Positions 39,973 through 51,418 are shown, counted from the stretch's first letter. The stretch: 64,000 nt of DNA from Escherichia coli 042 (GCF_000027125.1 NC_017626.1), one strand, 5' to 3'. Notes: a model not told the origin generated them from the sequence alone. A program made the numbers and translations.

Positions 39973-40383
39973 TGTCCTTCTCCTGCAAGAGAATTATTTT
40001 AATTTTCGCTTAATTCAGCGAAACCAAAGTAAAGTGGTCAAGCCCCGCGCTTAGCGCAAGCTTTGGCAGAAGAAAGGACTAAAGCGCGTTGCGCCAGTGC
40101 TGCTCACCTACGAGCAAGATAGTGGATGAGGTACGAAGATGGGTAAATGTAGAAAATAACGTCCTGAACAAATTGTCCATAATATTACAATTATCCGCAG
40201 TGTTGCTTCTCGTCATCGCGGATGATAATTGTCCTCGGTAGTTGAACACGCCTGATTTGTATCATAGCTTAAGAATTAACTCAAAATATTTTCACTTCTT
40301 TACCTGAGCGGTTTGATTTTCGTTATGATGACGGAGCGAAAAAGACATTATTATTAGCAAAGGAAGAAAAAACGGGGACAAGC

Positions 40384-40530
40384 ATGGCAAAGCCGATCAT
40401 CACGCTCAATGGCCTAAAAATCGTCATTATGTTGGGAATGCTGGTCATTATTCTCTGCGGTATCCGTTTTGCCGCCGAGATCATCGTGCCGTTTATTCTC
40501 GCATTATTTATTGCTGTTATATATAACTAA
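40384..40530 (+). pseudogene. tqsA: tqsA 5' fragment (first 46 native codons, then island-derived I-Y-N-stop)
   Basis: [46 protein letters not shown] then frame leaves native sequence at 40521. Confidence 0.85.
40512..40520. repeat. attL core direct repeat TGCTGTTAT
   Basis: Identical 9-mer at 51546-51554; joining the flanks restores ...[18 protein letters not shown]... of TqsA. Confidence 0.65.
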
Positions 40531-40593
40531 TTTCACTTAACGCATTGATTTAATTAAATGATTTGCACTACAAAAAGTGCCATAAATCGCAAA

Positions 40594-40617
40594 ATGACTA
40601 CACCAGTGACTACACCG
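40594..40617. repeat. Arm-type tandem repeat ATGACTACACC-AGTGACTACACCG near attL
   Basis: Same 23-24 nt tandem motif present at 51395-51418 near attR in same orientation. Confidence 0.55.
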
Positions 40618-40934
40618 TTCGGTGCACTGTATGAAACAACGTGGAACAAATAGACACAAGAAATATACAGGCGGGTCATCTTTCCAGGGGGAAGCGCGCT
40701 AATTCATGAGGGGCGTTAATGTTGATATGGGGATCCCCATAACGGGGCTACCGGATTTTTTTTCCGGTTAACTGTTAATCAGGCTGGTGGGCTTTACCTG
40801 TTTTGTAGGAGTGGTCATTATGACCATTCAGACAATGACCTTAATCAGAACTTTTCGCTAAAAAATGACGTTGGTCACGTCGTCCGGAAAGCACAAAATC
40901 CCGTCAATTTTTAATTAACGGTTAAACCGTCTTT

Positions 40935-40980
40935 TGTCACGGCGTGTCACTGGTTGTCACTCTCCGTCACGGTATGTCGC
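40935..40980. repeat. Five GTCAC-type half-sites phased at exactly 10 bp
   Basis: tGTCACggcgtGTCACtggttGTCACtctccGTCACggtatGTCGC; GTCAC is the reverse complement of the GTGAC of the arm repeats. Confidence 0.5.
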
Positions 40981-40986
40981 TACTCG

Positions 40987-41268
40987 TTAACGCCGTAACC
41001 GCTCCGGCTTCTTCCAGTGGTACGTAATTTTCTCCGTTTCCCGATACAGTGCCACGCGGCGATTGTAGGCCAGCATTTCAAGAACGCGGATCCGTATGTT
41101 GCGCATATCCACATCATTAAGCTGGATACCATCACGGCGCATCACCTCAGCAACCACACGCGCGTAATTTTCGGCGGTCACGCTGTCCGGCTGCGTGGCC
41201 TGTTCGTCATGCTGCTGGCTGATTCCGGTAACGCGGCGGATTAATCCCAGTAGTTCGGCTTCTGTCAT
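40987..41268 (-). CDS. Hypothetical island protein (93 aa from MTEAELLGLIRR)
   Basis: ORF; start chosen downstream of cos copy 1 with GGGGG SD-like upstream; longer ORF-track N-terminus would read through cos. Confidence 0.35.
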   Translation of the reverse strand: MTEAELLGLIRRVTGISQQHDEQATQPDSVTAENYARVVAEVMRRDGIQLNDVDMRNIRIRVLEMLAYNRRVALYRETEKITYHWKKPERLRR

Positions 41269-41301
41269 TGTGCCCCCATCGCTCTGATAGTCTGGTGTCG
41301 T

Positions 41302-41366
41302 CGGGTCCTTCCTGGAATTATGGCCCGTTACGGGGCGGCGACCTCGCGCGTTTTCACTATTTATGA
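41302..41366 (+). other. Lambda-type cos site copy 1 (cosN GGGCGGCGACCT at 41333-41344), followed by ACCGGACAT repeats at 41383-41479
   Basis: cgggtccttcc...gttacgGGGCGGCGACCTcgcgcgttttcactatttatgaaaatttt closely matches recalled lambda cosQ-cosN-left-end sequence. Confidence 0.7.
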
Positions 41367-41547
41367 AAATTTTTCGGGATCCATGTCCGGTTTCTCTGCA
41401 AGTTAACCATATGAAAAATATAAAAACATGCTTTCCATGAACCGGACATGCGCAAAAAACAGACACTAAAACCGGACATCGAACCAGTTAACCGAAAGTG
41501 TGCACAAATCACATGCATTGCTGCGAGTGATTAACAAGTTATCGGCT

Positions 41548-41982
41548 TTACTGTTCTGTATCGGCTGATTGCTCCATGCTGGCACGGCGAACGCTTATGG
41601 CATGACGCCACCCAGCCAGAAAGCCAGCCATTTTATTTCGTGCCTTGCTCACATCTTCCGGTGAATAGCCGTAAATCTGCAAACCTTCATCAAATCGATG
41701 TTCTGTTTCTTCACTGGAGTACTCGTCACGCTCAGATGAAAGCAGCCTGGCAAACATAATTTTTTCCAGCGCACTGGTTTCTACGTGATATCTGATGGTC
41801 TCAAGACGGCTTTTACCTGAAGACCAAAGCAATGTATGCCCGATGTGATAACCGCCAGACTTTCCGCGATCCGCATTAAGATACGGCATCCCCTGTTTGG
41901 TCCATGCGCGAATAGTGGTTCTGTTAACCTTGAAATGTTCAGCTATTTCCTGCTGACTTACAAAACAAGCTTTATCAATCAT
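41548..41982 (-). CDS. Nu1-like small terminase / packaging-specificity protein (144 aa)
   Basis: N-terminus VSQQEIAEHFKVNRTTIRAWTKQGMPYL parallels lambda Nu1 VNKKQLADIFGASIRTIQNWQEQGMPVL winged-HTH. Confidence 0.65.
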   Translation of the reverse strand: MIDKACFVSQQEIAEHFKVNRTTIRAWTKQGMPYLNADRGKSGGYHIGHTLLWSSGKSRLETIRYHVETSALEKIMFARLLSSERDEYSSEETEHRFDEGLQIYGYSPEDVSKARNKMAGFLAGWRHAISVRRASMEQSADTEQ

Positions 41983-42049
41983 AATGTTACCTTAACTGCA
42001 TGGTTAAATATTAATCAAGTGGTGGTGGTGTCACCTTCACGGAAAAACG

Positions 42050-42115
42050 TCATAAATAGCGAAAACCCGCGAGGTCGCCGCCCCGTAACGGGCCATAATT
42101 CCAGGAAGGACCCGT
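42050..42115 (-). other. Lambda-type cos site copy 2, inverted relative to copy 1 (cosN complement at 42072-42083), 88 bp upstream of terS
   Basis: Reverse complement reads ...gttacgGGGCGGCGACCTcgcgggttttcgctatttatga; 63/65 identity to copy 1. Confidence 0.7.
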
Positions 42116-42137
42116 AAAAAAGCCGGATTTCTCCGGC
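42115..42137 (-). terminator. Rho-independent terminator ending capsid operon
   Basis: Minus strand GCCGGAgaaaTCCGGC followed by T-tract. Confidence 0.6.
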
Positions 42138-42143
42138 CTTGTC

Positions 42144-42557
42144 TCAGATGTTTTTCAGTATGCGATCGATGTCGCCGTCATCGCCCTGGTTTCTGCCATC
42201 GTATGCCATGCCAGCTGATACGGCTTGCGGGCTGTGCATGTCCATAAAGTTTTCAAAGGCTGCGGTAAGTTCCGGCGCAACCTTCGGACGTTCCTGCTCT
42301 ATGGTCATGCTAAGGATGCTTTTAGCCGTACCAACATCGATACAAGGCACGTTTGCCATTGCACGCAACAGCGGCTGATAGTCTTTATGCTCATGAAGCG
42401 CCATAATCGCATCAGCGCGCGGCTTGTCCTGCTCTTCCAGTTTGTTTAGTTGATGTACGGCCTCATAGGTTGATAAACCTCTGTCAGCCATTGCCCGCGC
42501 TTCGACTTTAAATTTACTCGCCAGCGGTAGCGTCATGATGCTTTCATTCGTTGCCAT
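42144..42557 (-). CDS. Hypothetical island protein (137 aa), last gene of capsid operon
   Basis: ORF co-directional and tightly spaced after D-like gene. Confidence 0.45.
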   Translation of the reverse strand: MATNESIMTLPLASKFKVEARAMADRGLSTYEAVHQLNKLEEQDKPRADAIMALHEHKDYQPLLRAMANVPCIDVGTAKSILSMTIEQERPKVAPELTAAFENFMDMHSPQAVSAGMAYDGRNQGDDGDIDRILKNI

Positions 42558-42569
42558 CGTTCCCCCTGC

Positions 42570-42905
42570 TTATCGGGCCAGCGGCTGAACGGATACGCCG
42601 GAACCCGCAAAGGCGGCGCATTTTTTCGCATCGGTGTCGACGCTCTCAGGCCAGTTAACGGCGGCAATATTGAATATCCCCGTCTTGTAACACTGTGCTG
42701 ATTTCTGCTTTGACGTGTCCACAGGGTACGAGGTCAGATAAACAGCCTTGCCAGATTCCTGACCATCCCACGGCTTAAACTCGCCATTGTCTGCCAGCAT
42801 CAGCGGGGTAAATTCCTGAATAACGCCAGCATCAGCGGCAAAATGTACCAACGTCGTGGATACCTGCTGACTGCCTGCAAATAACTCAATGTATGGAGTG
42901 TCCAT
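42570..42905 (-). CDS. Head decoration protein, lambda gpD homolog (111 aa)
   Basis: TPLMLADNGEFKPWDG...YKTGIFNIAAVNWPESVDTDAKKCAAFAGSGVSV parallels lambda D TPLMLDTSSRKLVAWDG...[35 protein letters not shown]. Confidence 0.8.
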   Translation of the reverse strand: MDTPYIELFAGSQQVSTTLVHFAADAGVIQEFTPLMLADNGEFKPWDGQESGKAVYLTSYPVDTSKQKSAQCYKTGIFNIAAVNWPESVDTDAKKCAAFAGSGVSVQPLAR

Positions 42906-42917
42906 AGAATCCCCCCG

Positions 42918-43973
42918 TTAACCAATTTTGACGGTAACAAATTTGCGAATATCTGCCGGTACCGGCTGCGGTGCACTGTGTGTCTGCACGTACTCAATCG
43001 CCGGATCGCCGTCCTCAATCCAGTTTTTCGGGTAAAACATGTTTTGTGTTGCGCCCGTTCTTACCGCTTCCTGATCCATTATCGCACCATAGGCCACCAG
43101 CCCTTTATTGTTGGTGTTACCCAGGACCAGCAAATCAGGCTCAAGGAAATATTTTTCGGTACCATCGCTGTCAGTGTATTTGCCGGAATAGACGATAAGG
43201 GCCAGATCACCAAGATAGCCTTTAAAGCTCACCACTTCGCCCAGGTTTTTACAGGCCAGTTCGGCGGCGGATTCTGAACCACGGGAAAGATCGTACAGCT
43301 CACGGAATTTTTTAAAGCTGCGTAATGTGCGCCATACCTCAGCGCCCATAATCATGACGTTTGCGGGGCAACCAGCCTGATCAGCATAAAGCTCGATGTC
43401 ATAGATTGGGTCGTGCATGTCTTTATCCTGCTCGGACCATTTTTTACCCTTGGCCTGCTCTATGATGCAGTTTTCCGGTATTTTCCAGTCGATTTCATAG
43501 CGTTCTATGCCTTCGCCCTCAATGATGTTTTTTCCGGTCGTTACCGCATTCACCGCCAGCCATTCCACGCGTGCCTTAATGGCGTTTATCTGGCGGCGCA
43601 TGTTGCCAGTAATCAGGCGCATACGGCGATAGGTAGGGTCGTTAAGCTGTGCCGGATCTTCTCCAGCCATGCGCATGATGGTTTTCGTTGGATCGATTTC
43701 GTGCTTTGGCTTCATGTAGCCAGGTTTGATTGTGCTGGTTTCGTACCCTTTATCGCGCTGAACCTGGCTACCCACCATAGGCGAACAAAACGCCGACATG
43801 GTGACTTCTTCAATGTCCAGGGTATCCAGCATGATGTTTTGCGTGCTGAATGTCGCCACGTTCGGGAAAAACAGCGTGGTAAACAGAGGGCTGAATTTAA
43901 AATCCGCAATATCCCCGCGATTCAGGTACATGAAAAGCTGGTTAGTGTTAAGTGCCGTTGCTTTGCCTGCCAT
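42918..43973 (-). CDS. Major capsid protein, lambda gpE homolog (351 aa)
   Basis: KPGYMKPKHEIDP, DPTYRRMRLITGNMR, VSFKGYLGDLALIVYSGKY, YPKNWIEDGDPA align along recalled lambda E. Confidence 0.85.
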   Translation of the reverse strand: MAGKATALNTNQLFMYLNRGDIADFKFSPLFTTLFFPNVATFSTQNIMLDTLDIEEVTMSAFCSPMVGSQVQRDKGYETSTIKPGYMKPKHEIDPTKTIMRMAGEDPAQLNDPTYRRMRLITGNMRRQINAIKARVEWLAVNAVTTGKNIIEGEGIERYEIDWKIPENCIIEQAKGKKWSEQDKDMHDPIYDIELYADQAGCPANVMIMGAEVWRTLRSFKKFRELYDLSRGSESAAELACKNLGEVVSFKGYLGDLALIVYSGKYTDSDGTEKYFLEPDLLVLGNTNNKGLVAYGAIMDQEAVRTGATQNMFYPKNWIEDGDPAIEYVQTHSAPQPVPADIRKFVTVKIG

Positions 43974-44179
43974 TATTCACCCCCATAATTTTTATGCATC
44001 CCAAGCGCCGCAAGTAAATAAGAGCGTACAAGTGAACCTATCGACGGCTCCGGCGTCATCAGCGGATCCAGTCCAGCCGCAACGCCAGCTTCATAGTTTT
44101 TTTTGTGGCGCTGCTTGAGCACCTCCACGATTTCGGGGCTTATGTACACCGAAACACCGCCTTTTTTCTCTTCAGCCAT
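43973..44179 (-). CDS. Small protein upstream of capsid gene, possible ribbon-helix-helix fold (68 aa)
   Basis: MAEEKKGGVSVYISPEIVEVLKQRHKK; GAGGA SD; stop overlaps capsid start. Confidence 0.35.
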   Translation of the reverse strand: MAEEKKGGVSVYISPEIVEVLKQRHKKNYEAGVAAGLDPLMTPEPSIGSLVRSYLLAALGMHKNYGGE

Positions 44180-44208
44180 AGTAAGAAATTCCTCTTCGAC
44201 TAAAAAAA

Positions 44209-44236
44209 TCATAACTGGATGTTTATCCAGTTATGA
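44209..44236. promoter_or_regulatory. Perfect 12-bp inverted repeat TCATAACTGGAT-gttt-ATCCAGTTATGA in capsid-operon promoter region
   Basis: Seen directly; 30 bp upstream of operon start; second palindrome ATTGCATtttATGCAAT at 44248-44264. Confidence 0.5.
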
Positions 44237-44388
44237 TTATAATCAGAATTGCATTTTATGCAATGATATTGAGTTATGTTGCAAATTATGAAATGATTAT
44301 CCCGATCACGAACGCCAGTGCATCCAAAAACCTCATATGCAAAAGCCCGATAAGAACCCTCTGACCTTATCGGGCTTTTTTTGGGCGC

Positions 44389-44410
44389 AAAAAAGCCGGA
44401 TTGCTCCGGC
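44389..44410 (-). terminator. Rho-independent terminator after 74-aa gene
   Basis: Same GCCGGA-loop-TCCGGC module plus T-tract; preceded by second hairpin 44345-44382. Confidence 0.55.
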
Positions 44411-44430
44411 TATGTGTGCTGTGTGCTGGC

Positions 44431-44655
44431 TCAGTCTCTGATCTCTTTCAGAAATTCTATCAATGCATCTATCTGTTCAGGATTTACCGCCAGCATTTCA
44501 CCGGATAGAGCACATCTCACAAAACCATGCTGATCCTTTTCAATCAGTGCGCCCGTCTCCAGGAATGCGCGGTAATCATTGATGCTCATCGTCTCCATGT
44601 TGTCAGCATGGTATTTATCACGCTGTTTTAATATCTCATCAAATTTCATCGGCAT
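44431..44655 (-). CDS. Hypothetical island protein (74 aa)
   Basis: ORF bracketed by terminators. Confidence 0.4.
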   Translation of the reverse strand: MPMKFDEILKQRDKYHADNMETMSINDYRAFLETGALIEKDQHGFVRCALSGEMLAVNPEQIDALIEFLKEIRD

Positions 44656-44751
44656 TGTTTTTTTCCTCTGTTGTGTCTGTTTGTTTCAGATAGTAACTAT
44701 GCCTGACCGTGACGAAAACCCGGTAATGCGCCATACCGTTTCAACTGGTGC

Positions 44752-44774
44752 AAAAAAAGCCGGATTTCTCCGGC
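44752..44774 (-). terminator. Rho-independent terminator after PerC-like gene
   Basis: GCCGGAgaaaTCCGGC plus T7 on minus strand. Confidence 0.6.
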
Positions 44775-44781
44775 TGTTTGA

Positions 44782-45054
44782 TTAGCTGTCCTGGTAATTG
44801 CGCCATATTTCATCACCAGCACCATCTATACCCATTTCGGCATAAGTGCGATCGACTGCCTTTTTCAGGTCTCCGAAATTATCCGGCGGCTCCGGTGCCC
44901 TCTGTGCCTTCCTTGAACATTCCAGCCGTCGCATCGTGATGTGATGCCGTTCCTTGTCTGTCTCCACCAGCTGCATGACTTCACCCCATCGCGCCGCCGC
45001 CCTCCGGTAAAAGCCTTTCGCCTCCAGTTCCTCCGCTATGCGGTCATGTACCAT
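44782..45054 (-). CDS. PerC/Pch-family transcriptional regulator (90 aa)
   Basis: AEELEAKGFYRRAAARWGEVM resembles recalled Pch/PerC signature (…LEAQGLWRRAAARW…); GAGGGGG SD before ATG. Confidence 0.55.
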   Translation of the reverse strand: MVHDRIAEELEAKGFYRRAAARWGEVMQLVETDKERHHITMRRLECSRKAQRAPEPPDNFGDLKKAVDRTYAEMGIDGAGDEIWRNYQDS

Positions 45055-45064
45055 CGTCACCCCC

Positions 45065-45475
45065 TCAGAACGAAATATCATCACCGTAAGGGTCATCGCC
45101 TCCCGCTGGTGGCTGATTACCCTGTGTGCCTGTGGTTTTGCGTCTGTTCCCGCCTGGACGTGCCGCGCGGGCACTGATTACGCTGTCTGCGATAACCTGC
45201 CAGCCCTGCCGCGTTTCTCCGTTCTGTCCGGTCCACTGGCTTACCTGCATCGTGCCGGATACGCTGGCAACATCGCCTTTTTGATGTTTAGCCAGGAAGT
45301 CGGCCTGTTTGCCAAATGCGATGACCGATAACCATAACGTCGCCTGTCCGTCCTGTGCCTGGCTGCATGGCAAAGATACCGCCATACGCGCCAGCGTCAT
45401 CGGTGTGCCCTTGCTGGTCTGTTTTACCTGCGGGTCGTCCACCAGCCGCCCGTAAGCGGCTATCTGTGCCGTCAT
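45065..45475 (-). CDS. ssb: Single-stranded DNA-binding protein (SSB)
   Basis: OB-fold region and Gly/Pro-rich tail ending DDPYGDDISF (cf. E. coli SSB C-terminal DDDIPF). Confidence 0.8.
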   Translation of the reverse strand: MTAQIAAYGRLVDDPQVKQTSKGTPMTLARMAVSLPCSQAQDGQATLWLSVIAFGKQADFLAKHQKGDVASVSGTMQVSQWTGQNGETRQGWQVIADSVISARAARPGGNRRKTTGTQGNQPPAGGDDPYGDDISF

Positions 45476-45723
45476 AATTCCACCTCTCCGGTTTTAACGT
45501 TGATGGTTGTTACCTGTTCCGCTTCGGCAATCTCCCGTTCTGTCAGCGTGGCAAAGTTTGCCGCCGCCGTGGTCATGAATGCGCTTATCAGGTCGGGATG
45601 TTCCTTCGCGTATCCTTCCCGCGTGTGGCGGTCTATCGTTCTGATTGCCACCTTTAAGGTGTGCTCAGTCATGTCTAACGCTTTATATTTTGGCTCTGTT
45701 CTGTCTCTGCGTTTTTGGGTCAT
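45472..45723 (-). CDS. Hypothetical small protein between ori and ssb
   Basis: ORF; start uncertain (45723 or 45672). Confidence 0.3.
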   Translation of the reverse strand: MTQKRRDRTEPKYKALDMTEHTLKVAIRTIDRHTREGYAKEHPDLISAFMTTAAANFATLTEREIAEAEQVTTINVKTGEVEL

Positions 45724-45734
45724 TTCTCGCAACC

Positions 45735-45926
45735 TCTCACTTTTTCGCCTCACTTTTTCAAGCGTCTCACTTCGTCGCAGTTGGGATTTTCGGTTTTTCT
45801 ATGTGTGTGTTTCATAAGTATTTTTTTACCCCTCACTTTTGAGGATGTATACAGGTCGAAAAGTGAGGGAGAGCGGGCTAATTTTGGCCCTCTTTCTATC
45901 CCCCTCGCTTTTGCTCCTCACTTTTA
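45735..45926. repeat. Iteron array (CTCACTTTT, at least 6 copies, both orientations) with AT-rich spacer: putative island replication origin
   Basis: Copies at 45735, 45748, 45766, 45832, 45858 (inverted), 45916; directly 3' of pri-rep gene. Confidence 0.55.
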
Positions 45927-47324
45927 TAGCGGCGCTACATCATCCCCATCGATACGAATAACCCCATCTTTTTCCAGCTTGTACAGCCAGCGCCGGAAGT
46001 TTTTCATTTCATACCCCAGCTTTTTCATGTCATCACGTAACAGCGGGATCGTGCACTTGTCGCCGTTCTGTGTGCGTGAACGGATGCACCCCCATAGCGC
46101 GGTATGGTTTTCCGTCTTGTTCCCTGCCTCCTCGATGCGCTCCAGTTCAACAGGAGGGCGCGGATCATCCACCACCACCAGCGACGTGATTAATTCACCG
46201 TCAGCGTCGGTAAAAAGCTCCACCACGCGTAAGTCATATGCGGCTTCTTTGAGTTCCTCCGCGTCCTTCATTTTGGTGCATGAGATAACCAGCGCTTCGC
46301 TTCCTGCGTCCTCCCTGCGTATCCGGTATTCAGCATCCAGCGAAGCACGAAATGCACTGGAACCGCGCGCGCCTTTCGTCTCATCCTTGCCGGAATGGTG
46401 AACCACCAGCACCGTGGCCCCTGTGCGTCGTTTCAGTTCGTCACAACCACGGATAAACGCCCCCATATCACGGGAATCATTTTCATCATTCCCACCAAAG
46501 CAACGCGCCAGCGTATCCAGAATAATCATGCGTACAGGTTTACCCGTTTCCCGCTCCACCTGACGGGCAGCGATAACCATTTCATCAACATCAAGCGGGG
46601 CAGCCGGAAAGATGGGGCGGTTTACCAGATACAGATTTTTCACCTGCTCATCGTGCACAACCTCCCAGGCTTTTACACGACGCGGAACACCTATACCGCC
46701 TTCACCAACCACATAGAGAACCGCACCATGTGCAACCCTGCGGCCTCCCCACTGGCGACCAGTGGCAACATGGCACGCCCACGATCCAGCAAGGAATGAT
46801 TTATAGGACCCGCTAGCCCCGTATATGCTGCATAGCGATACCGCCGGAATAATCCCCTTAACCACGTAATCCAGTTGCGTGTCGTATCCGGTAGATCCAA
46901 CGCTCATCGGTAGCGTGGTTTTTCGCTGGTGTTTTTTTTCTTCCGCCGGCTCTTTCCCGCGCACCCGTTCCAGGTATTCGCGCCAGTTCTCCCGCATATG
47001 GCTGTGCATCCCTTCGGGGTAATAATTCGCATCAGTTACACCCGCCGCCGCCAGCTTGTGCGCAATGGCATTAATATTTGATGGCCTGATGTGGCCTGCC
47101 TTGTACAGCCGGACACAATAGCGCCCCTCGTCGATGATTCTCAGGTCTGCCAGTTCATCCAGTTGATCATCAGCCAGCACAACGGGAGGCACATTATCGC
47201 CAGCCAGTCGCCCGTCCTGTTCCTGCCACTGTTTCGCATGTGCCCAGGCATCACTACCCGCAAAAATAATGACTTCGGTCATCTTGTCGTAAGGCTGTTT
47301 TTTTAAGTTCGGTGCGCTTTTCAT
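45924..47324 (-). CDS. Primase/replicase-type AAA ATPase (RepA/AAA_25-like, 466 aa)
   Basis: Walker A GASGSYKS, Walker B MIILDTLARCFGG, VVHHSGKDETKGARGSSAF sensor region. Confidence 0.8.
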   Translation of the reverse strand: MKSAPNLKKQPYDKMTEVIIFAGSDAWAHAKQWQEQDGRLAGDNVPPVVLADDQLDELADLRIIDEGRYCVRLYKAGHIRPSNINAIAHKLAAAGVTDANYYPEGMHSHMRENWREYLERVRGKEPAEEKKHQRKTTLPMSVGSTGYDTQLDYVVKGIIPAVSLCSIYGASGSYKSFLAGSWACHVATGRQWGGRRVAHGAVLYVVGEGGIGVPRRVKAWEVVHDEQVKNLYLVNRPIFPAAPLDVDEMVIAARQVERETGKPVRMIILDTLARCFGGNDENDSRDMGAFIRGCDELKRRTGATVLVVHHSGKDETKGARGSSAFRASLDAEYRIRREDAGSEALVISCTKMKDAEELKEAAYDLRVVELFTDADGELITSLVVVDDPRPPVELERIEEAGNKTENHTALWGCIRSRTQNGDKCTIPLLRDDMKKLGYEMKNFRRWLYKLEKDGVIRIDGDDVAPL

Positions 47325-47620
47325 TTCTTGCCCCTGAATCCGTTAACCATGGTTTTCAGCTTCTGGATGTTTGCCCGTGCCCTGGCGTTGCTGGTGGGCA
47401 CGTTATGCGGCGCGGTCTGTACCAGAGAAAAATCACGCCGGAACTGATAAACAGGCATCACGCAATCATATTCGTAACCTTCACGGCGGTAGGTTACGCG
47501 CCGTTCTTCCACGTCCTTAATCATTACCGTGCCGCCGTACTGGTCGCGGTAAATATCACCGCGCGTAAATTTAGGGTGAGTGTTGCCACTGGCAGTTAAG
47601 CCAGAATATTTAAGTTTCAT
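47321..47620 (-). CDS. Hypothetical island protein (99 aa)
   Basis: ORF in tight operon; stop overlaps pri-rep start. Confidence 0.45.
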   Translation of the reverse strand: MKLKYSGLTASGNTHPKFTRGDIYRDQYGGTVMIKDVEERRVTYRREGYEYDCVMPVYQFRRDFSLVQTAPHNVPTSNARARANIQKLKTMVNGFRGKK

Positions 47621-47625
47621 TATTT

Positions 47626-47859
47626 TTATTCTCCGGTGTGCTGTTCTTTATATCTGTCGTGCAATAGATCTATTTCTTGCAGTTCCATTATTACAGGCTC
47701 AAGAAGCGTTATTAATGCTGTGGCAATTCTTGATTTTTGTTTGTCGCGTTCATTGTCGCCAAGTGTTTCAAGCCATATGCGCAATATTTCCATCATGTTT
47801 TCACTGTGAGAAAGTGCAAGAAATGCGCGGTCTATTGTTTGGTGGTAAATATCACGCAT
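47626..47859 (-). CDS. Hypothetical island protein (77 aa)
   Basis: ORF in operon. Confidence 0.4.
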   Translation of the reverse strand: MRDIYHQTIDRAFLALSHSENMMEILRIWLETLGDNERDKQKSRIATALITLLEPVIMELQEIDLLHDRYKEQHTGE

Positions 47860-48319
47860 GGCTTACATCCTCAGGAAATTTTCTTCTATAACGCGCCTCT
47901 GCCACATATTCCGCATAATCGGCGGCGATATTCAGTACATCAAGCCCCGTTGATTTATATTCTCTCGTGGAAAGTAAGAAAAAAGCCGCTCTAATAAGTT
48001 CTGGCATTGACGAAAGCGCATCAGCCGCATCATCAGGAACGCCGGAAAATTCCTGTTTCAGGGAATTAAAACGATCATCACGCATAACCCCCCCCCCATT
48101 TTCACAATCAGCAATCAGGATAGCTTTGGCCTCATTCAGCGCCGTATCAGCACTAAATTGCATGACAGCCAGTGAGTGAGGAACGAAAGCACCGGCATAT
48201 TCTGTTTCGCTGGTGGCGTGCTTATGTGCCCTGTCCGCGATAACAGAAATATCAATCAGCGCGTGCATCAGCGTTTTGATGGCTTCGGCGGCTGCGTCCG
48301 GTGTGGTTTTATTGTGCAT
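47852..48319 (-). CDS. Hypothetical island protein (155 aa)
   Basis: ORF in operon. Confidence 0.45.
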   Translation of the reverse strand: MHNKTTPDAAAEAIKTLMHALIDISVIADRAHKHATSETEYAGAFVPHSLAVMQFSADTALNEAKAILIADCENGGGVMRDDRFNSLKQEFSGVPDDAADALSSMPELIRAAFFLLSTREYKSTGLDVLNIAADYAEYVAEARYRRKFPEDVSHA

Positions 48320-48521
48320 AAAGCATCCCCTGAATATTCGTGTTAATCATTCCGGCACGTTTTGTGATTTCCTGTAATGATTCCCTTGTGGCGACAATTG
48401 CTTCATCTGGTAAGTGGTAATTACACACCACGCGACCTTTATCCACATTGACCAGTAGCTGCCCTGTGAATTTCTCACGAAACTGAATGCGGTTAAGGTC
48501 AGTAAGTGACAGATTAATCAT
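48309..48521 (-). CDS. Hypothetical island protein (70 aa)
   Basis: AGGAGG immediately upstream of ATG at 48521. Confidence 0.45.
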   Translation of the reverse strand: MINLSLTDLNRIQFREKFTGQLLVNVDKGRVVCNYHLPDEAIVATRESLQEITKRAGMINTNIQGMLYAQ

Positions 48522-48711
48522 GGCGCACCTCCTGACGAATACGGGCGGCAAATACAGCAACACAACCGGACGGGCAACGGTTACGCGCTTCGCGTTCCGT
48601 CCAGGCGGTTACGTGGATGATTTGAGATTCTCCGGCACTCAGTGCCAGAAAACGCCACACAAAGGCCGTTTGTGTGTGTACAAGGTGTGGTATATGATTT
48701 ACAGCAACCAT
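48514..48711 (-). CDS. Hypothetical island protein (65 aa), first gene of leftward operon
   Basis: AGGAG SD upstream of ATG at 48711. Confidence 0.4.
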   Translation of the reverse strand: MVAVNHIPHLVHTQTAFVWRFLALSAGESQIIHVTAWTEREARNRCPSGCVAVFAARIRQEVRHD

Positions 48712-48804
48712 AACGGCTCCTAGTTTACGTTGTTGGTTAGAAGCCCTGCGAGTGGTAACGACACTTGCGGGGCTTTGTCTTTTCATCGATTACCTTGATA
48801 AAGG

Positions 48805-48884
48805 TGTCAGCCACTATATTAGTAACGGGTGTCAGCCACGTCAATAGTGTTTTTCCGTTTTCTTGTGTGTATACTGTCAGCCAC
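48805..48884. promoter_or_regulatory. Three direct repeats TGTCAGCCAC in divergent promoter region, with TATACT -10-like element
   Basis: Repeats at 48805-48814, 48830-48839, 48875-48884. Confidence 0.5.
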
Positions 48885-48905
48885 CTAATAACGAGGAAAT
48901 CAGAT

Positions 48906-49085
48906 ATGGCAACAAAAGCAGTTAATGCAAAATCCAAAAAGCTTGAGGCTCGAGTACCACACGCAATAGCTGATGCTGTAGAAAATTTAAAGGAAGATGG
49001 CGAAAGTACAGGGCAATTTATCGTTTCGGCACTTGAAGGCGAGATCAAACGCCGCCAGCGCCGCAAGGCCAAAGAATCAGAATAA
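48906..49085 (+). CDS. Ribbon-helix-helix (CopG/Arc-like) putative repressor (59 aa)
   Basis: KKLEARVPHAIADAVENLKEDGESTGQFIVSALEGEIKR fits beta-strand/helix/helix RHH pattern; divergent from main operon. Confidence 0.5.
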   Translation: MATKAVNAKSKKLEARVPHAIADAVENLKEDGESTGQFIVSALEGEIKRRQRRKAKESE

Positions 49086-49127
49086 TCACTATCAGCGCCG
49101 TGGTGTGAGGTATTACGGCGCATTGCT

Positions 49128-49316
49128 ATGCAGGACAACACAATGACCGATAAAGAATTGACCAAAACATTATCACCGGCACGGAAAAGACGGCGCAGAA
49201 AGATAGAGCATGAATCAGAAAGATTCGCACCATGTGCTTTTGCCCTTGAGCAATTCCTTAAAGAGTACAGGGAAAAGCGCTCATTGCAGGTATGGCAACG
49301 AACTGAACCAGACTGA
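49128..49316 (+). CDS. Hypothetical small basic protein (62 aa or shorter from MTDKEL)
   Basis: ORF followed by hairpin plus T7 at ~49410-49440. Confidence 0.3.
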   Translation: MQDNTMTDKELTKTLSPARKRRRRKIEHESERFAPCAFALEQFLKEYREKRSLQVWQRTEPD

Positions 49317-49585
49317 TTGCATTGCCCACCAGCCTGATAGCGGCTATCATCCCCGTGCTTATGTTTGGGATCACACACACAAACGGCGCAGCGGGTTATC
49401 TGTTCAGAAAGGCGGCTCCATTTCGGGGCCGCTTTTTTTATACCTGAAAAACCCCAATTTTGTTGTTTTTCAGTTTCACCAGGGCGAACGAATCCCCGCC
49501 CACGTTCTGGCGTATATTCAATCTTCATGGTTATAGCTCTGTGTTCAGATGATTGATGTGTGGCGGCTGCGTGCCGCCAGCGTGA

Positions 49586-49774
49586 TTAATGAACTGCCTT
49601 GCAGCTATCCTTCCAGGCCAGAACCTCGGATAAAGACCAGCCAACGGAACGACCGCCAAGTTTACGACGTGATGGGAATTGTCCGGCCTTTTCCAGGCGG
49701 TAGCGACACGTACGGCTAAGGCCGGTTAGTTTTTCGCATTCTTTTTCACGTATAAACCGATCAGTGCTTAACAC
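49586..49774 (-). CDS. alpA: AlpA-family excision/transcription regulator
   Basis: 62 aa MLSTDRFIREKECEKLTGLSRTCRYRLEKAGQFPSRRKLGGRSVGWSLSEVLAW. Confidence 0.8.
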   Translation of the reverse strand: MLSTDRFIREKECEKLTGLSRTCRYRLEKAGQFPSRRKLGGRSVGWSLSEVLAWKDSCKAVH

Positions 49775-50048
49775 TATTGCCCCCCCTTTCGTTTCTTAAA
49801 GAGTCATCAGGTGTCTTATTGTGTCGTATTGTTCCCGCTAGAGTGATGAATGGCAAATATTGAGGATGTATGATTTACAGAAAATGAAACAGTAAGAATA
49901 AAATCTTTTAAATTCATGTTAATACAAAGGCATAAAATATTGTTTCATGCCTTTTTTCTCGCTCTTTAAAGAGTGATTCGCTAGTGTATAAAAAACCAGT
50001 GACACATTAAAAATCAGCCACTTATAAATCTGTATGCTTTTTCGCCTC

Positions 50049-50123
50049 TTGTTCGTGGTTGTTCCACATTGTTGCTCATTGTTGCACGTTGTATCTGTTC
50101 GCATATACAGTATGCGCATACTG
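50049..50123. promoter_or_regulatory. Five TTGTTSC-like repeats at ~10-bp spacing plus 16-bp perfect palindrome CAGTATGCGCATACTG (50108-50123) in int-alpA intergenic region
   Basis: Seen directly. Confidence 0.4.
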
Positions 50124-50140
50124 AAAAAACACGAAAAAAA

Positions 50141-51370
50141 TTATTTTCTTCTGGCTACTGGTAGCGTGGTTACGTTTTCATGTGTTCCCGCCAGTATCCC
50201 TAACCGCTCCGTCCACATATCCAGCGCATTGCGTTTAGCATCCAGATAACGGGAATGATTATAAACTCGCTGCATTCCTGGCATCTGGTGGCCTGTAAGC
50301 TGCTCCACGACATGCGGATCAACGCCTAAATCGTTCAGCATGGTTGTAAAGGTGCGCCGGATGTCATGCAGTGACCAGTGAGGATGATTAAGCCTCCTGT
50401 GCGCTAATCTTCCATACTGCGATACGCTGGCCTCCTGTTTCACTTCCCCCAGCAATAAGCCCGTGTGCCTGTTCTGCTCCACCAGCTGCGTGACGAACGG
50501 CAGGATCGCTTCCGGTATGGGCCGGAATATTGCGACCTTCGTTTTGCTGTGCTCCTTCGGAACGGTCCATAGCATTTCCGTAAAATCCCACTCCCCGATC
50601 TCCGATAACCTCAGTTCTACCGTTCTGGCTCCGAAGACAATCAGGAGGCGGATTAACGCGACGTAGTAAGGGGAGAATATTTTTTTGTCCAGTGCCTGCA
50701 ATAATTCGCCAAGTTCTTTGTTACTTAAGACACGTTCGCTTATATCCGGTTTTTTCCCAACGTCCGCCACGTTCAGATCGTCCAGAACGTTGCTGATTGC
50801 ATAGCGCCGCCTACGGCAGAACTTAAGCGCCTGTTTGCACGCCTGTAGCACGAATCCGGCAGTAACAGGCGTTCGCTTTGCCACCTGGTCAAAACAGGCC
50901 AGCCAGTGCCGTAGCTCGCATTTATCCAGCGGCATAGCACCAATCTGCTGTATTACGTGATTATTAAGTCGCCTTTTCAGGGCGATATAATCCACGCGGT
51001 TTTCCTTTACGTAATACTCAAGCCAGTAGGTGAGCGCATCGCCAACCGTTACCGGCTTTAACGCTTCCTGTACGGTGTAATTAAGCTCATGACGTGGATT
51101 TTTCCCCTCTGCCAGCCATGCGCGACACTGGGCGGCTTTTTCCCTGGCTGATTTCAGGCTCAGATCAGGATAACTTCCCAGCTTAATGCGTTCGGGTCGT
51201 GTCTCCCTTCCCGTTCCGGCCCTGTATGTGAAATACCAGGTCAATTTCCCTGATGTTAAATATTTCACGCTCAGGTTTCCGCCATCACTATAAAACGTGT
51301 TTTTCTCCGCTGGCTTACCATGAAGTTTCCTTAGCAAGGTATCGCTCAGTTTGTTCATTGCTCTGCTCAC
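50141..51370 (-). CDS. int: P4-type tyrosine integrase (start GTG 51370 or ATG 51358)
   Basis: 409-aa ORF; catalytic region ...HDIRRTFTTMLNDLGVDPHVVEQLTGHQMPGMQRVYNHSRY; adjacent to attR. Confidence 0.9.
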   Translation of the reverse strand: MSRAMNKLSDTLLRKLHGKPAEKNTFYSDGGNLSVKYLTSGKLTWYFTYRAGTGRETRPERIKLGSYPDLSLKSAREKAAQCRAWLAEGKNPRHELNYTVQEALKPVTVGDALTYWLEYYVKENRVDYIALKRRLNNHVIQQIGAMPLDKCELRHWLACFDQVAKRTPVTAGFVLQACKQALKFCRRRRYAISNVLDDLNVADVGKKPDISERVLSNKELGELLQALDKKIFSPYYVALIRLLIVFGARTVELRLSEIGEWDFTEMLWTVPKEHSKTKVAIFRPIPEAILPFVTQLVEQNRHTGLLLGEVKQEASVSQYGRLAHRRLNHPHWSLHDIRRTFTTMLNDLGVDPHVVEQLTGHQMPGMQRVYNHSRYLDAKRNALDMWTERLGILAGTHENVTTLPVARRK

Positions 51371-51394
51371 GTTTTACCCCCTCTTTACGAAAAA

Positions 51395-51418
51395 GTGACT
51401 ACACCAGTGACTACACCG
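51395..51418. repeat. Arm-type tandem repeat GTGACTACACC-AGTGACTACACCG near attR
   Basis: Matches 40594-40617. Confidence 0.55.

Follow-up and report, generated by a model that had tools for sequence, protein, structure and literature searches.

A capsid operon in an island of Escherichia coli 042 is preceded by a long perfect palindrome, which raises the question of what the palindrome does and which factor reads it. The window discussed here is the whole stretch of DNA that was analyzed (64,000 nt), and its relevant features are listed in Table 1. We read the palindrome as the operator of a sigma-70 promoter driving the capsid/Rpp operon and predict that its reader is the host SOS repressor LexA; the probability we attach to this reading is about 0.6.

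Table 1. Position, strand and characteristics of features of the island and of its capsid-operon promoter (window coordinates).
Feature	Position	Strand	Characteristics
12-nt-arm palindrome TCATAACTGGAT-gttt-ATCCAGTTATGA	44209-44236		Read from sequence
Extended perfect palindrome, arms AATCATAACTGGAT / ATCCAGTTATGATT	44207-44238	-	14-nt arms, 4-nt spacer
T run	44202-44208	-	7 T: 2 inside the stem, 5 after the stem
Candidate LexA (SOS) box AACTGGATAAACATCCAGTT	44213-44232	-	CTG-N10-CAG; conserved palindrome core
Second palindrome ATTGCATtttATGCAAT = ATTGCATAAAATGCAAT = ATTGCATTTTATGCAAT	44248-44264	strandless	Overlaps -35 and spacer
Predicted -10 TATAAT	44236-44241	-	Read from sequence; 3 nt upstream of the box
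Predicted -35 TTGCAT	44258-44263	-	3 of 6, TTG kept; 16-nt spacer to -10
RBS AAGAGGAA	44196-44189	-	Before ATG 44179
Upstream motif copy ATCATTTCATAATTTGCAA	44279-44297	-	Repeat family D1; nearly invariant
Upstream terminator 1, AGCCGGAGCAATCCGGCT + T6	44388-44411	-	-12.5 kcal/mol
Upstream terminator 2, AAAAAGCCCGATAAG ... CTTATCGGGCTTTT	44341-44379	-	Hairpin + T-run, -21.7 kcal/mol
First operon gene, 68-aa protein (phrog_3255)	43973-44179	-	ATG at 44179
Major capsid protein, lambda gpE family	42918-43973	-	phrog_29, E 1.5e-107; PF03864 in relatives; counterpart of EcCICFT073 c1499
Head decoration protein, gpD-like	42570-42905	-	phrog_49; PF02924 in relatives; counterpart of c1500
137-aa scaffold-like protein	42144-42557	-	phrog_1999; phrog_53 positions 496-567, 5.8e-9
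Rpp (redirecting phage packaging) homologue, winged-HTH	41548-41982	-	99% identical to CFT073 protein at c1503 (RppA) position
RepA-type helicase	45924-47324
AlpA-like	49586-49774
Integrase	50141-51370

The island and its capsid operon

Islands of the EcCICFT073 type are read in one direction throughout, are ~10-12 kb long and encode a primase or a replication helicase. The island in the window carries int, alpA, a replication helicase and a capsid/decoration/rpp module, and it is an EcCICFT073-type PICI (E. coli phage satellite). Its upstream part contains PerC-like, SSB, RepA-helicase, AlpA-like and integrase genes, and the operon genes are all on the minus strand. The preliminary description had called these genes a capsid operon, and the name fits their products, which comprise a head protein, a decoration protein, a scaffold-like protein and Rpp. 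The 137-aa protein resembles the C-terminal (scaffold) part of head maturation proteases. In EcCICFT073, c1499 (capsid), c1500 (decoration) and c1503 (RppA) have been described (PMC6092414, PMC6739421). Gene order, promoter and palindrome (TCATAACTGGATGAACATCCAGTTATGA) are the same at the CFT073 locus as in the window. Unlike EcCICFT073, the window island has an additional 74-aa gene upstream. Of 5426 complete E. coli genomes, 604 (~11%) match this region.

The chromosomal site varies. The island in the window (40000-51400) lies beside mdtJI, on the pntB side, whereas EcCICFT073 is next to phoQ; in both O157:H7 (L001) and CFT073 (L018) the island is between phoQ and roxA, and the integrase differs in line with the site. 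CFT073 also has a lambdoid prophage at icd, ~11 kb from the island. In the window, a 263-aa ORF at 48737-49528 matches an O157 region annotated as a truncated Icd-like cell-division-inhibitor pseudogene, and it is probably not a real 263-aa gene.

Repeats of several kinds occur in the island. Two inverted 78-nt repeats (41302-41379 and 42037-42114), 91% complementary, flank rpp. Each carries what we take to be a lambda-type cos core (...GTTACGGGGCGGCGACCTCGCGGGTTTTCGCTATTTATGA...), like that of the lambda left end. Two opposed cos-like sites around rpp may matter for packaging or for rpp allele exchange. A terminator module, AGCCGGAG(A/C)AATCCGGCT, is found three times, after the 74-aa gene (44394-44411), after PerC (44758-44775) and after the scaffold-like gene (42121-42138). 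Upstream of alpA, four direct G(C/G)AACAA repeats with 10-11 nt spacing (GTGCAACAATGAGCAACAATGTGGAACAACCACGAACAAG) are located at 50045-50085 on the minus strand, and they resemble recombination-directionality or arm-type sites. A sequence similar to these repeats, GCAAC(A/G)ATGA, stands right before the -10 in the capsid-operon promoters of Salmonella.

Promoter, palindromes and their conservation

The promoter of the operon was predicted from sequence. A consensus scan with a threshold of 4-of-6 did not call it, the -35 being weak (3 of 6). The predicted start is at ~44232-44228, within the candidate LexA box. Among the 98 loci having the element, the -10 is TATAAT in 97 and TGTAAT in one (L092), and the TTGC of the -35 is kept across the E. 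coli and Salmonella variants listed.

The preliminary description had reported a 28-bp perfect palindrome about 30 bp upstream of the operon, a second palindrome 12 bp further upstream and insulation by tandem terminators, and this layout is accurate. The 12-nt-arm palindrome is separated from the ATG by 29 nt, and its arms extend to 14 nt (44207-44220 and 44225-44238, 100% complementary, 4-nt spacer). The second palindrome is 11 nt farther from the gene. Both terminators come after the 74-aa gene (44655-44431, minus), and terminator 2 is conserved among E. coli relatives. A perfect 12-nt-arm repeat with a fixed spacer has a chance expectation of ~64000/4^12 = 0.004 per window. Allowing no more than one mismatch, CTGGATNNNNATCCAG occurs once in the 64-kb window (0.13 expected).

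Conservation was compared in 99 loci, namely the window, 10 RefSeq E. coli loci (CFT073 included), 8 loci reached via divergent 68-aa homologues (including Salmonella islands, first-gene product ~54% identical) and 80 IMG/VR contigs. Among them, 54 different upstream sequences occur, and the segment from the -10 to the T run has 26 different versions. One-genome-per-species contigs scanned with the capsid protein, and then with its alignment, yielded no confirmed relative, so the comparison covers E. coli and Salmonella. Repeating the IMG/VR scan with the Salmonella-type capsid recovered mainly E. coli contigs that the first had already given, and tblastn of the 68-aa protein against deposited phages gave no match.

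The invariant parts of the element are the TATAAT -10 and, after 3 nt, the 20-mer aaCTGgataaacatcCAGtt (44213-44232), not the long palindrome. CTGGAT-N4-AT(C/A)CAGT is positioned exactly 3 nt after the -10 hexamer in 98 of the 99 loci, and the CTG-N10-CAG core is retained equally widely, the exception being L059. A T run of 5-7 is retained in all variants compared. The outer arms vary in most relatives: the left has the form TCATAA, TCAGGA, TCAGAG, TCAGAT, TCACAA or TCATGA, the right TTATGA, TTGTGA, TCCTGA, TTCTGA or TTATAA, and the long arms are perfect in only about one-third of loci. The operator-like site seen on the promoter in the preliminary description is therefore upheld for its conserved core but not for its 28-bp extent, because the outer arms vary and the Salmonella copies have a 1-nt insertion in the right one.

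Among the loci compared, only the window/O157 lineage has a perfect second palindrome. In relatives its left arm is TTGCAC, TTGCGC, TTGCTC or TTGCGA with ATGCAA unchanged, and inner arm positions vary without compensation. What is conserved in this region is TTGC (the predicted -35) and AAAATGCAA rather than the symmetry. Perfect long arms and a perfect second palindrome are traits of this lineage, not of the family. The -10 region at 44236-44247 (TGATTATAATCA) is itself a 12-bp palindrome, extending to CTGATTATAATCAG where relatives have TCAG; the self-complementarity of ATTATAAT may be all that lies behind it.

Farther upstream, in an AT-rich region, are two copies of a 19-nt motif, ATCATT(G/T)CATAA(A/T)(A/T)TGCAA, at 44297-44279 and 44267-44249 (30 nt apart, 84% identity). 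The upstream copy is conserved as CATTTCATAATTT(G/A)CAAC in E. coli and Salmonella and is a candidate activator or UP-like element. Together with AAAATGCAA, this nearly invariant motif suggests further regulatory input besides LexA. AlpA is a candidate reader of the upstream motifs, solely by analogy with its reported activator role. TTGCA-N5-TGCAA is not enriched elsewhere in the window (6 matches, 5.4 expected). The AT-rich upstream region presumably also bears a resemblance to the Fur box and to the LysR T-N11-A motif.

A candidate LexA box at the predicted start site

The conserved core was scored with a matrix of symmetrised weights from 18 E. coli SOS boxes (PMC3009722, Table 4). It scores 22.2-22.4 bits, within the range of validated E. 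coli SOS boxes, which have a leave-one-out median of 19.9 and a range of 3.8-27.6. The exact p-value per position is 2e-8 (uniform composition) to 1e-7 (AT-rich), so that chance would yield 0.001-0.006 matches per window and 0.1-0.5 in a genome. A heterology-index-like value of 5.2 falls between the extremes of the training boxes (0.3-8.5). The candidate box agrees with the consensus TACTGTATATATATACAGTA at 14 of 20 positions, with CTG and CAG intact.

The closest likeness is to the ruvAB operator (CGCTGGATATCTATCCAGCA) and the cho box (CACTGGATAGATAACCAGCA), which share the 20-bp palindrome and CTG-N10-CAG and overlap a promoter, as the candidate box does a predicted one. CTGGAT/ATCCAG half-sites identical to those of the candidate box are present in the ruvA box (PMC3009722), and the CTGG/CCAG form is found in both ruvA and cho. 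With ruvA and cho left out of the matrix, the candidate box still scores 21.9 bits, compared with 16.7 for ruvA and 17.7 for cho. It has G/C where the consensus has T/A, so LexA affinity may be moderate. Unlike E. coli SOS boxes, it is on a mobile element, outside the described regulon, and within a longer palindrome followed by a T-run.

The box is also singular in its surroundings. It is the top match in the 64-kb window, followed by matches of 15.8-16.1 and 14.2-14.5 bits, and it is the top match of the 49-kb CFT073 locus and the 16-kb O157 locus as well. In all 17 loci scanned whole, Salmonella included, the top match is in the same place (18.7-21.9 bits), and elsewhere in those loci that are 3-6 kb long scores are 12 bits or lower. 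When the scan was confined to -120 to +12, the best box was located there in 97 of 97 loci (16.2-22.4 bits). Geometry, score and rarity, and retention at orthologous promoters with diverging flanks are all those of an E. coli SOS box, and LexA is the predicted reader.

Some natural variants discriminate between a LexA site and an RNA hairpin, as far as sequence can. Six loci have ATACAG in place of ATCCAG, which breaks the palindrome and a core G-C pair and brings the box nearer to the LexA consensus (21.9 bits). The insertion in the Salmonella copies falls outside the 20-mer, and their box ends in the consensus CAGTA. L059 (IMGVR_UViG_2529293138_000005, ~2200-2295) is the sole locus of the 99 with CTG-N11-CAG, through a 1-nt insertion in the spacer or loop (CTGGATGAACAATCCAG); this would spoil LexA spacing but not the hairpin, and it is either a natural test case for the two readings or a sequencing error.

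The second and third best matches to the LexA matrix are also in the island, between the integrase stop and the AlpA-like gene (49982-50001 and 50093-50112). One match, TACTGTATATGCGAACAGAT (CTGT-N8-ACAG, 14.5 bits), overlaps a perfect 16-bp palindrome, CAGTATGCGCATACTG (50122-50107). Another, CACTGGTTTTTTATACACTA, has CAC instead of CAG and scores 16 bits in the window and 18.4 bits in O157 (L001 13808-13827, upstream of alpA). In published work, alpA induction is helper-dependent, not SOS-dependent.

With TATAAT followed after 3 nt by the box, the box would extend from about -3 to +17 relative to the predicted start. A LexA dimer lying across the start site would hold off a fairly strong sigma-70 promoter by blocking RNA polymerase in undamaged cells. 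DNA damage would activate RecA, LexA would cleave itself, and the operon would be derepressed. The same damage signal induces lambdoid helper prophages, and production of the capsid, decoration, scaffold-like and Rpp proteins would then coincide with helper induction. The two upstream terminators would keep the operon independent of transcription of the replication module, and the hairpin and U-run, formed only in RNA started upstream, may add insulation. The "tightly regulated late promoter" of the preliminary description keeps its operator-like character but is better read as an SOS-gated promoter, the core being a predicted LexA box.

LexA may not account for everything at this site. LexA alone does not explain the conserved TGAT and T-run after the box or the persistent hairpin. 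On non-lysogens, EcCICFT073 prevents lambda from forming plaques by way of rppA (PMC6092414, PMC6739421). Such interference takes place with no obvious SOS signal, which implies that LexA is not the sole control or that repression is leaky. Expression would then come from leaky repression, from repression that is sensitive to dosage once the island has replicated, or by a second route; a like case was noted for SaPI operon I.

Other readings and related systems

A different reader is conceivable. The palindrome could be the operator of an island regulator (PerC-like or the 68-aa protein) or of a helper-phage regulator, timing the operon to the helper late phase, as the preliminary description had supposed. 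A symmetric site overlapping a predicted promoter, the conserved upstream motifs and a PerC-family gene just upstream in many islands would suit such a regulator, as would the reported activation of EcCICFT073 genes by AlpA (PMC6092414) and the fact that rppA-dependent interference works on infection without an SOS inducer. However, the conserved part is exactly a LexA box of canonical form, the flanks needed for a longer operator vary, and no further copy of the half-site motif occurs in the island. With the conserved core a candidate LexA box, no dedicated helper or island factor is needed. PerC in particular fits poorly as the reader: of 92 loci that share the promoter and extend 900 bp or more upstream, 34 have no PerC homologue. 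LEE1 fusions did not respond to the PerC-like proteins of these PICIs (PMC11773190), and these proteins have no known DNA site. The 68-aa protein, the candidate for an RHH-like reader, has no match in Pfam or NCBIfam; its AF2 model (pLDDT 71) consists of two helices, and its best PDB fold matches have E above 1, so that no RHH fold match is significant. With nothing usable in Pfam, NCBIfam or PDB folds, the 68-aa protein was dropped as an RHH autoregulator. We consider a dedicated regulator of the palindrome unlikely, and an extra activator at the conserved upstream motifs possible.

The element could instead act mainly as RNA. An intrinsic terminator or attenuator (14-bp hairpin and U-run) would stop transcripts started upstream, either as a third insulator or as a barrier overcome by a helper or island antiterminator. 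The consensus scan flags the palindrome as terminator-like on the operon strand. The full hairpin folds at -17.7 kcal/mol (z = -6.6 relative to shuffles) with 5 U after the stem, and every variant, bulged Salmonella copies included, retains a hairpin of -11.8 to -17.3 kcal/mol and 5-7 U. Outer-arm changes are compensated in three lineages (TCACAA/TTGTGA, TCAGGA/TCCTGA and TCAGAG/TTCTGA), and the L059 insertion falls in the hairpin loop.

The position of the hairpin argues against this as its main role. Its 5' arm starts inside the best-conserved -10 TATAAT, and in transcripts from that promoter the hairpin shrinks to 5 bp (-3.9 kcal/mol), no different from shuffles. The sole upstream promoter candidate, TTCATA-18-TATCAT, has a poorly conserved -10, and only transcripts that read through both strong terminators would contain the full hairpin. 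Just 4 G-C pairs occur in the stem. One of these, in the core, is removed without compensation by the C-to-A change in the six ATACAG loci; pair 13-34, which varies most, fails to pair in 11 of 20 variants. Covariation does not exceed that of shuffles: two pairs change on both sides, as they likewise do in 183 of 500 shuffles, and for the covariation score the figure is ~86-94 of 500. Template switching can produce compensated changes in quasi-palindromes in the absence of selection. An Rfam search gave only sub-threshold noise. We regard a mainly RNA-level element as quite improbable, although termination of read-through RNA is possible as a secondary role.

The lambdoid late control region (pR', Q-loading site, tR') resembles this locus in having a promoter-proximal hairpin and U-run ahead of morphogenetic genes. 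It differs in that no conserved promoter is found here upstream of the hairpin, and the 5' arm overlaps with the invariant TATAAT. Only the layout is similar, and a lambda-Q-like pause-and-terminator arrangement was rejected because the upstream -10 that it requires is not conserved.

That the long palindrome has no function of its own, being a promoter beside a quasi-palindrome perfected by template-switch mutation in some lineages, agrees with its imperfect arms in about two of every three loci and with the non-significant covariation, but it is very improbable given a 16-nt core and a distance to the -10 that are invariant in 98 of 99 loci of E. coli and Salmonella with diverging flanks, and given a 22-bit SOS-box match of such low chance expectation per window.

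The proposed LexA control has a parallel in SaPIs. SaPI operon I (terS and capsid-size genes) is LexA-regulated (Ubeda et al., 2007, as described in PMC3152322), and terS of this operon is still expressed when LexA-dependent expression is blocked (PMC3152322). The two systems are alike in that a satellite packaging or capsid operon follows the replication module and has its own promoter with a host LexA site (predicted here), and in firing with DNA damage, a signal that also induces helper prophages (as we infer here). They differ in gene content: SaPI operon I contains terS, cp1 and cp2, unrelated to the gpE-like capsid, gpD-like decoration and Rpp genes found here. Here the host is a Gram-negative bacterium, with a box of the corresponding type, CTG-N10-CAG. 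SaPI island regulation is by Stl repression, whereas that of the EcCICFT073 type is by AlpA activation. By this comparison the resemblance is a functional analogy, not homology or membership.

A broader scheme can be outlined, which we put forward tentatively and consider rather doubtful as a whole. EcCICFT073-type PICIs would have two keys: AlpA, which depends on the helper, would serve excision and replication, and host LexA would serve the capsid/Rpp operon. The palindrome would be dual, a DNA operator and an RNA terminator of leak-through transcripts, and the operon would be fired only by its own LexA-gated promoter, convergent with SaPI operon I. Rpp interference and packaging redirection would then be SOS-dependent.

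LexA control is apparently unreported for Gram-negative PICIs. Published EcCICFT073 work covers AlpA and Rpp and does not describe this promoter. The literature searched contained no report linking LexA with EcCICFT073 or E. coli PICIs, none containing the site sequence, and no relevant report on c1498-c1500 expression. If LexA control is true, a model E. coli satellite would sense DNA damage directly and not only a helper-phage signal, and the timing of capsid-related and Rpp proteins to prophage induction would be explained. Gram-positive and Gram-negative satellites would have reached the same wiring independently. Quinolones and other SOS-inducing antibiotics would be expected to increase expression of the Rpp and capsid genes in the ~11% of complete E. 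coli genomes that match this region.
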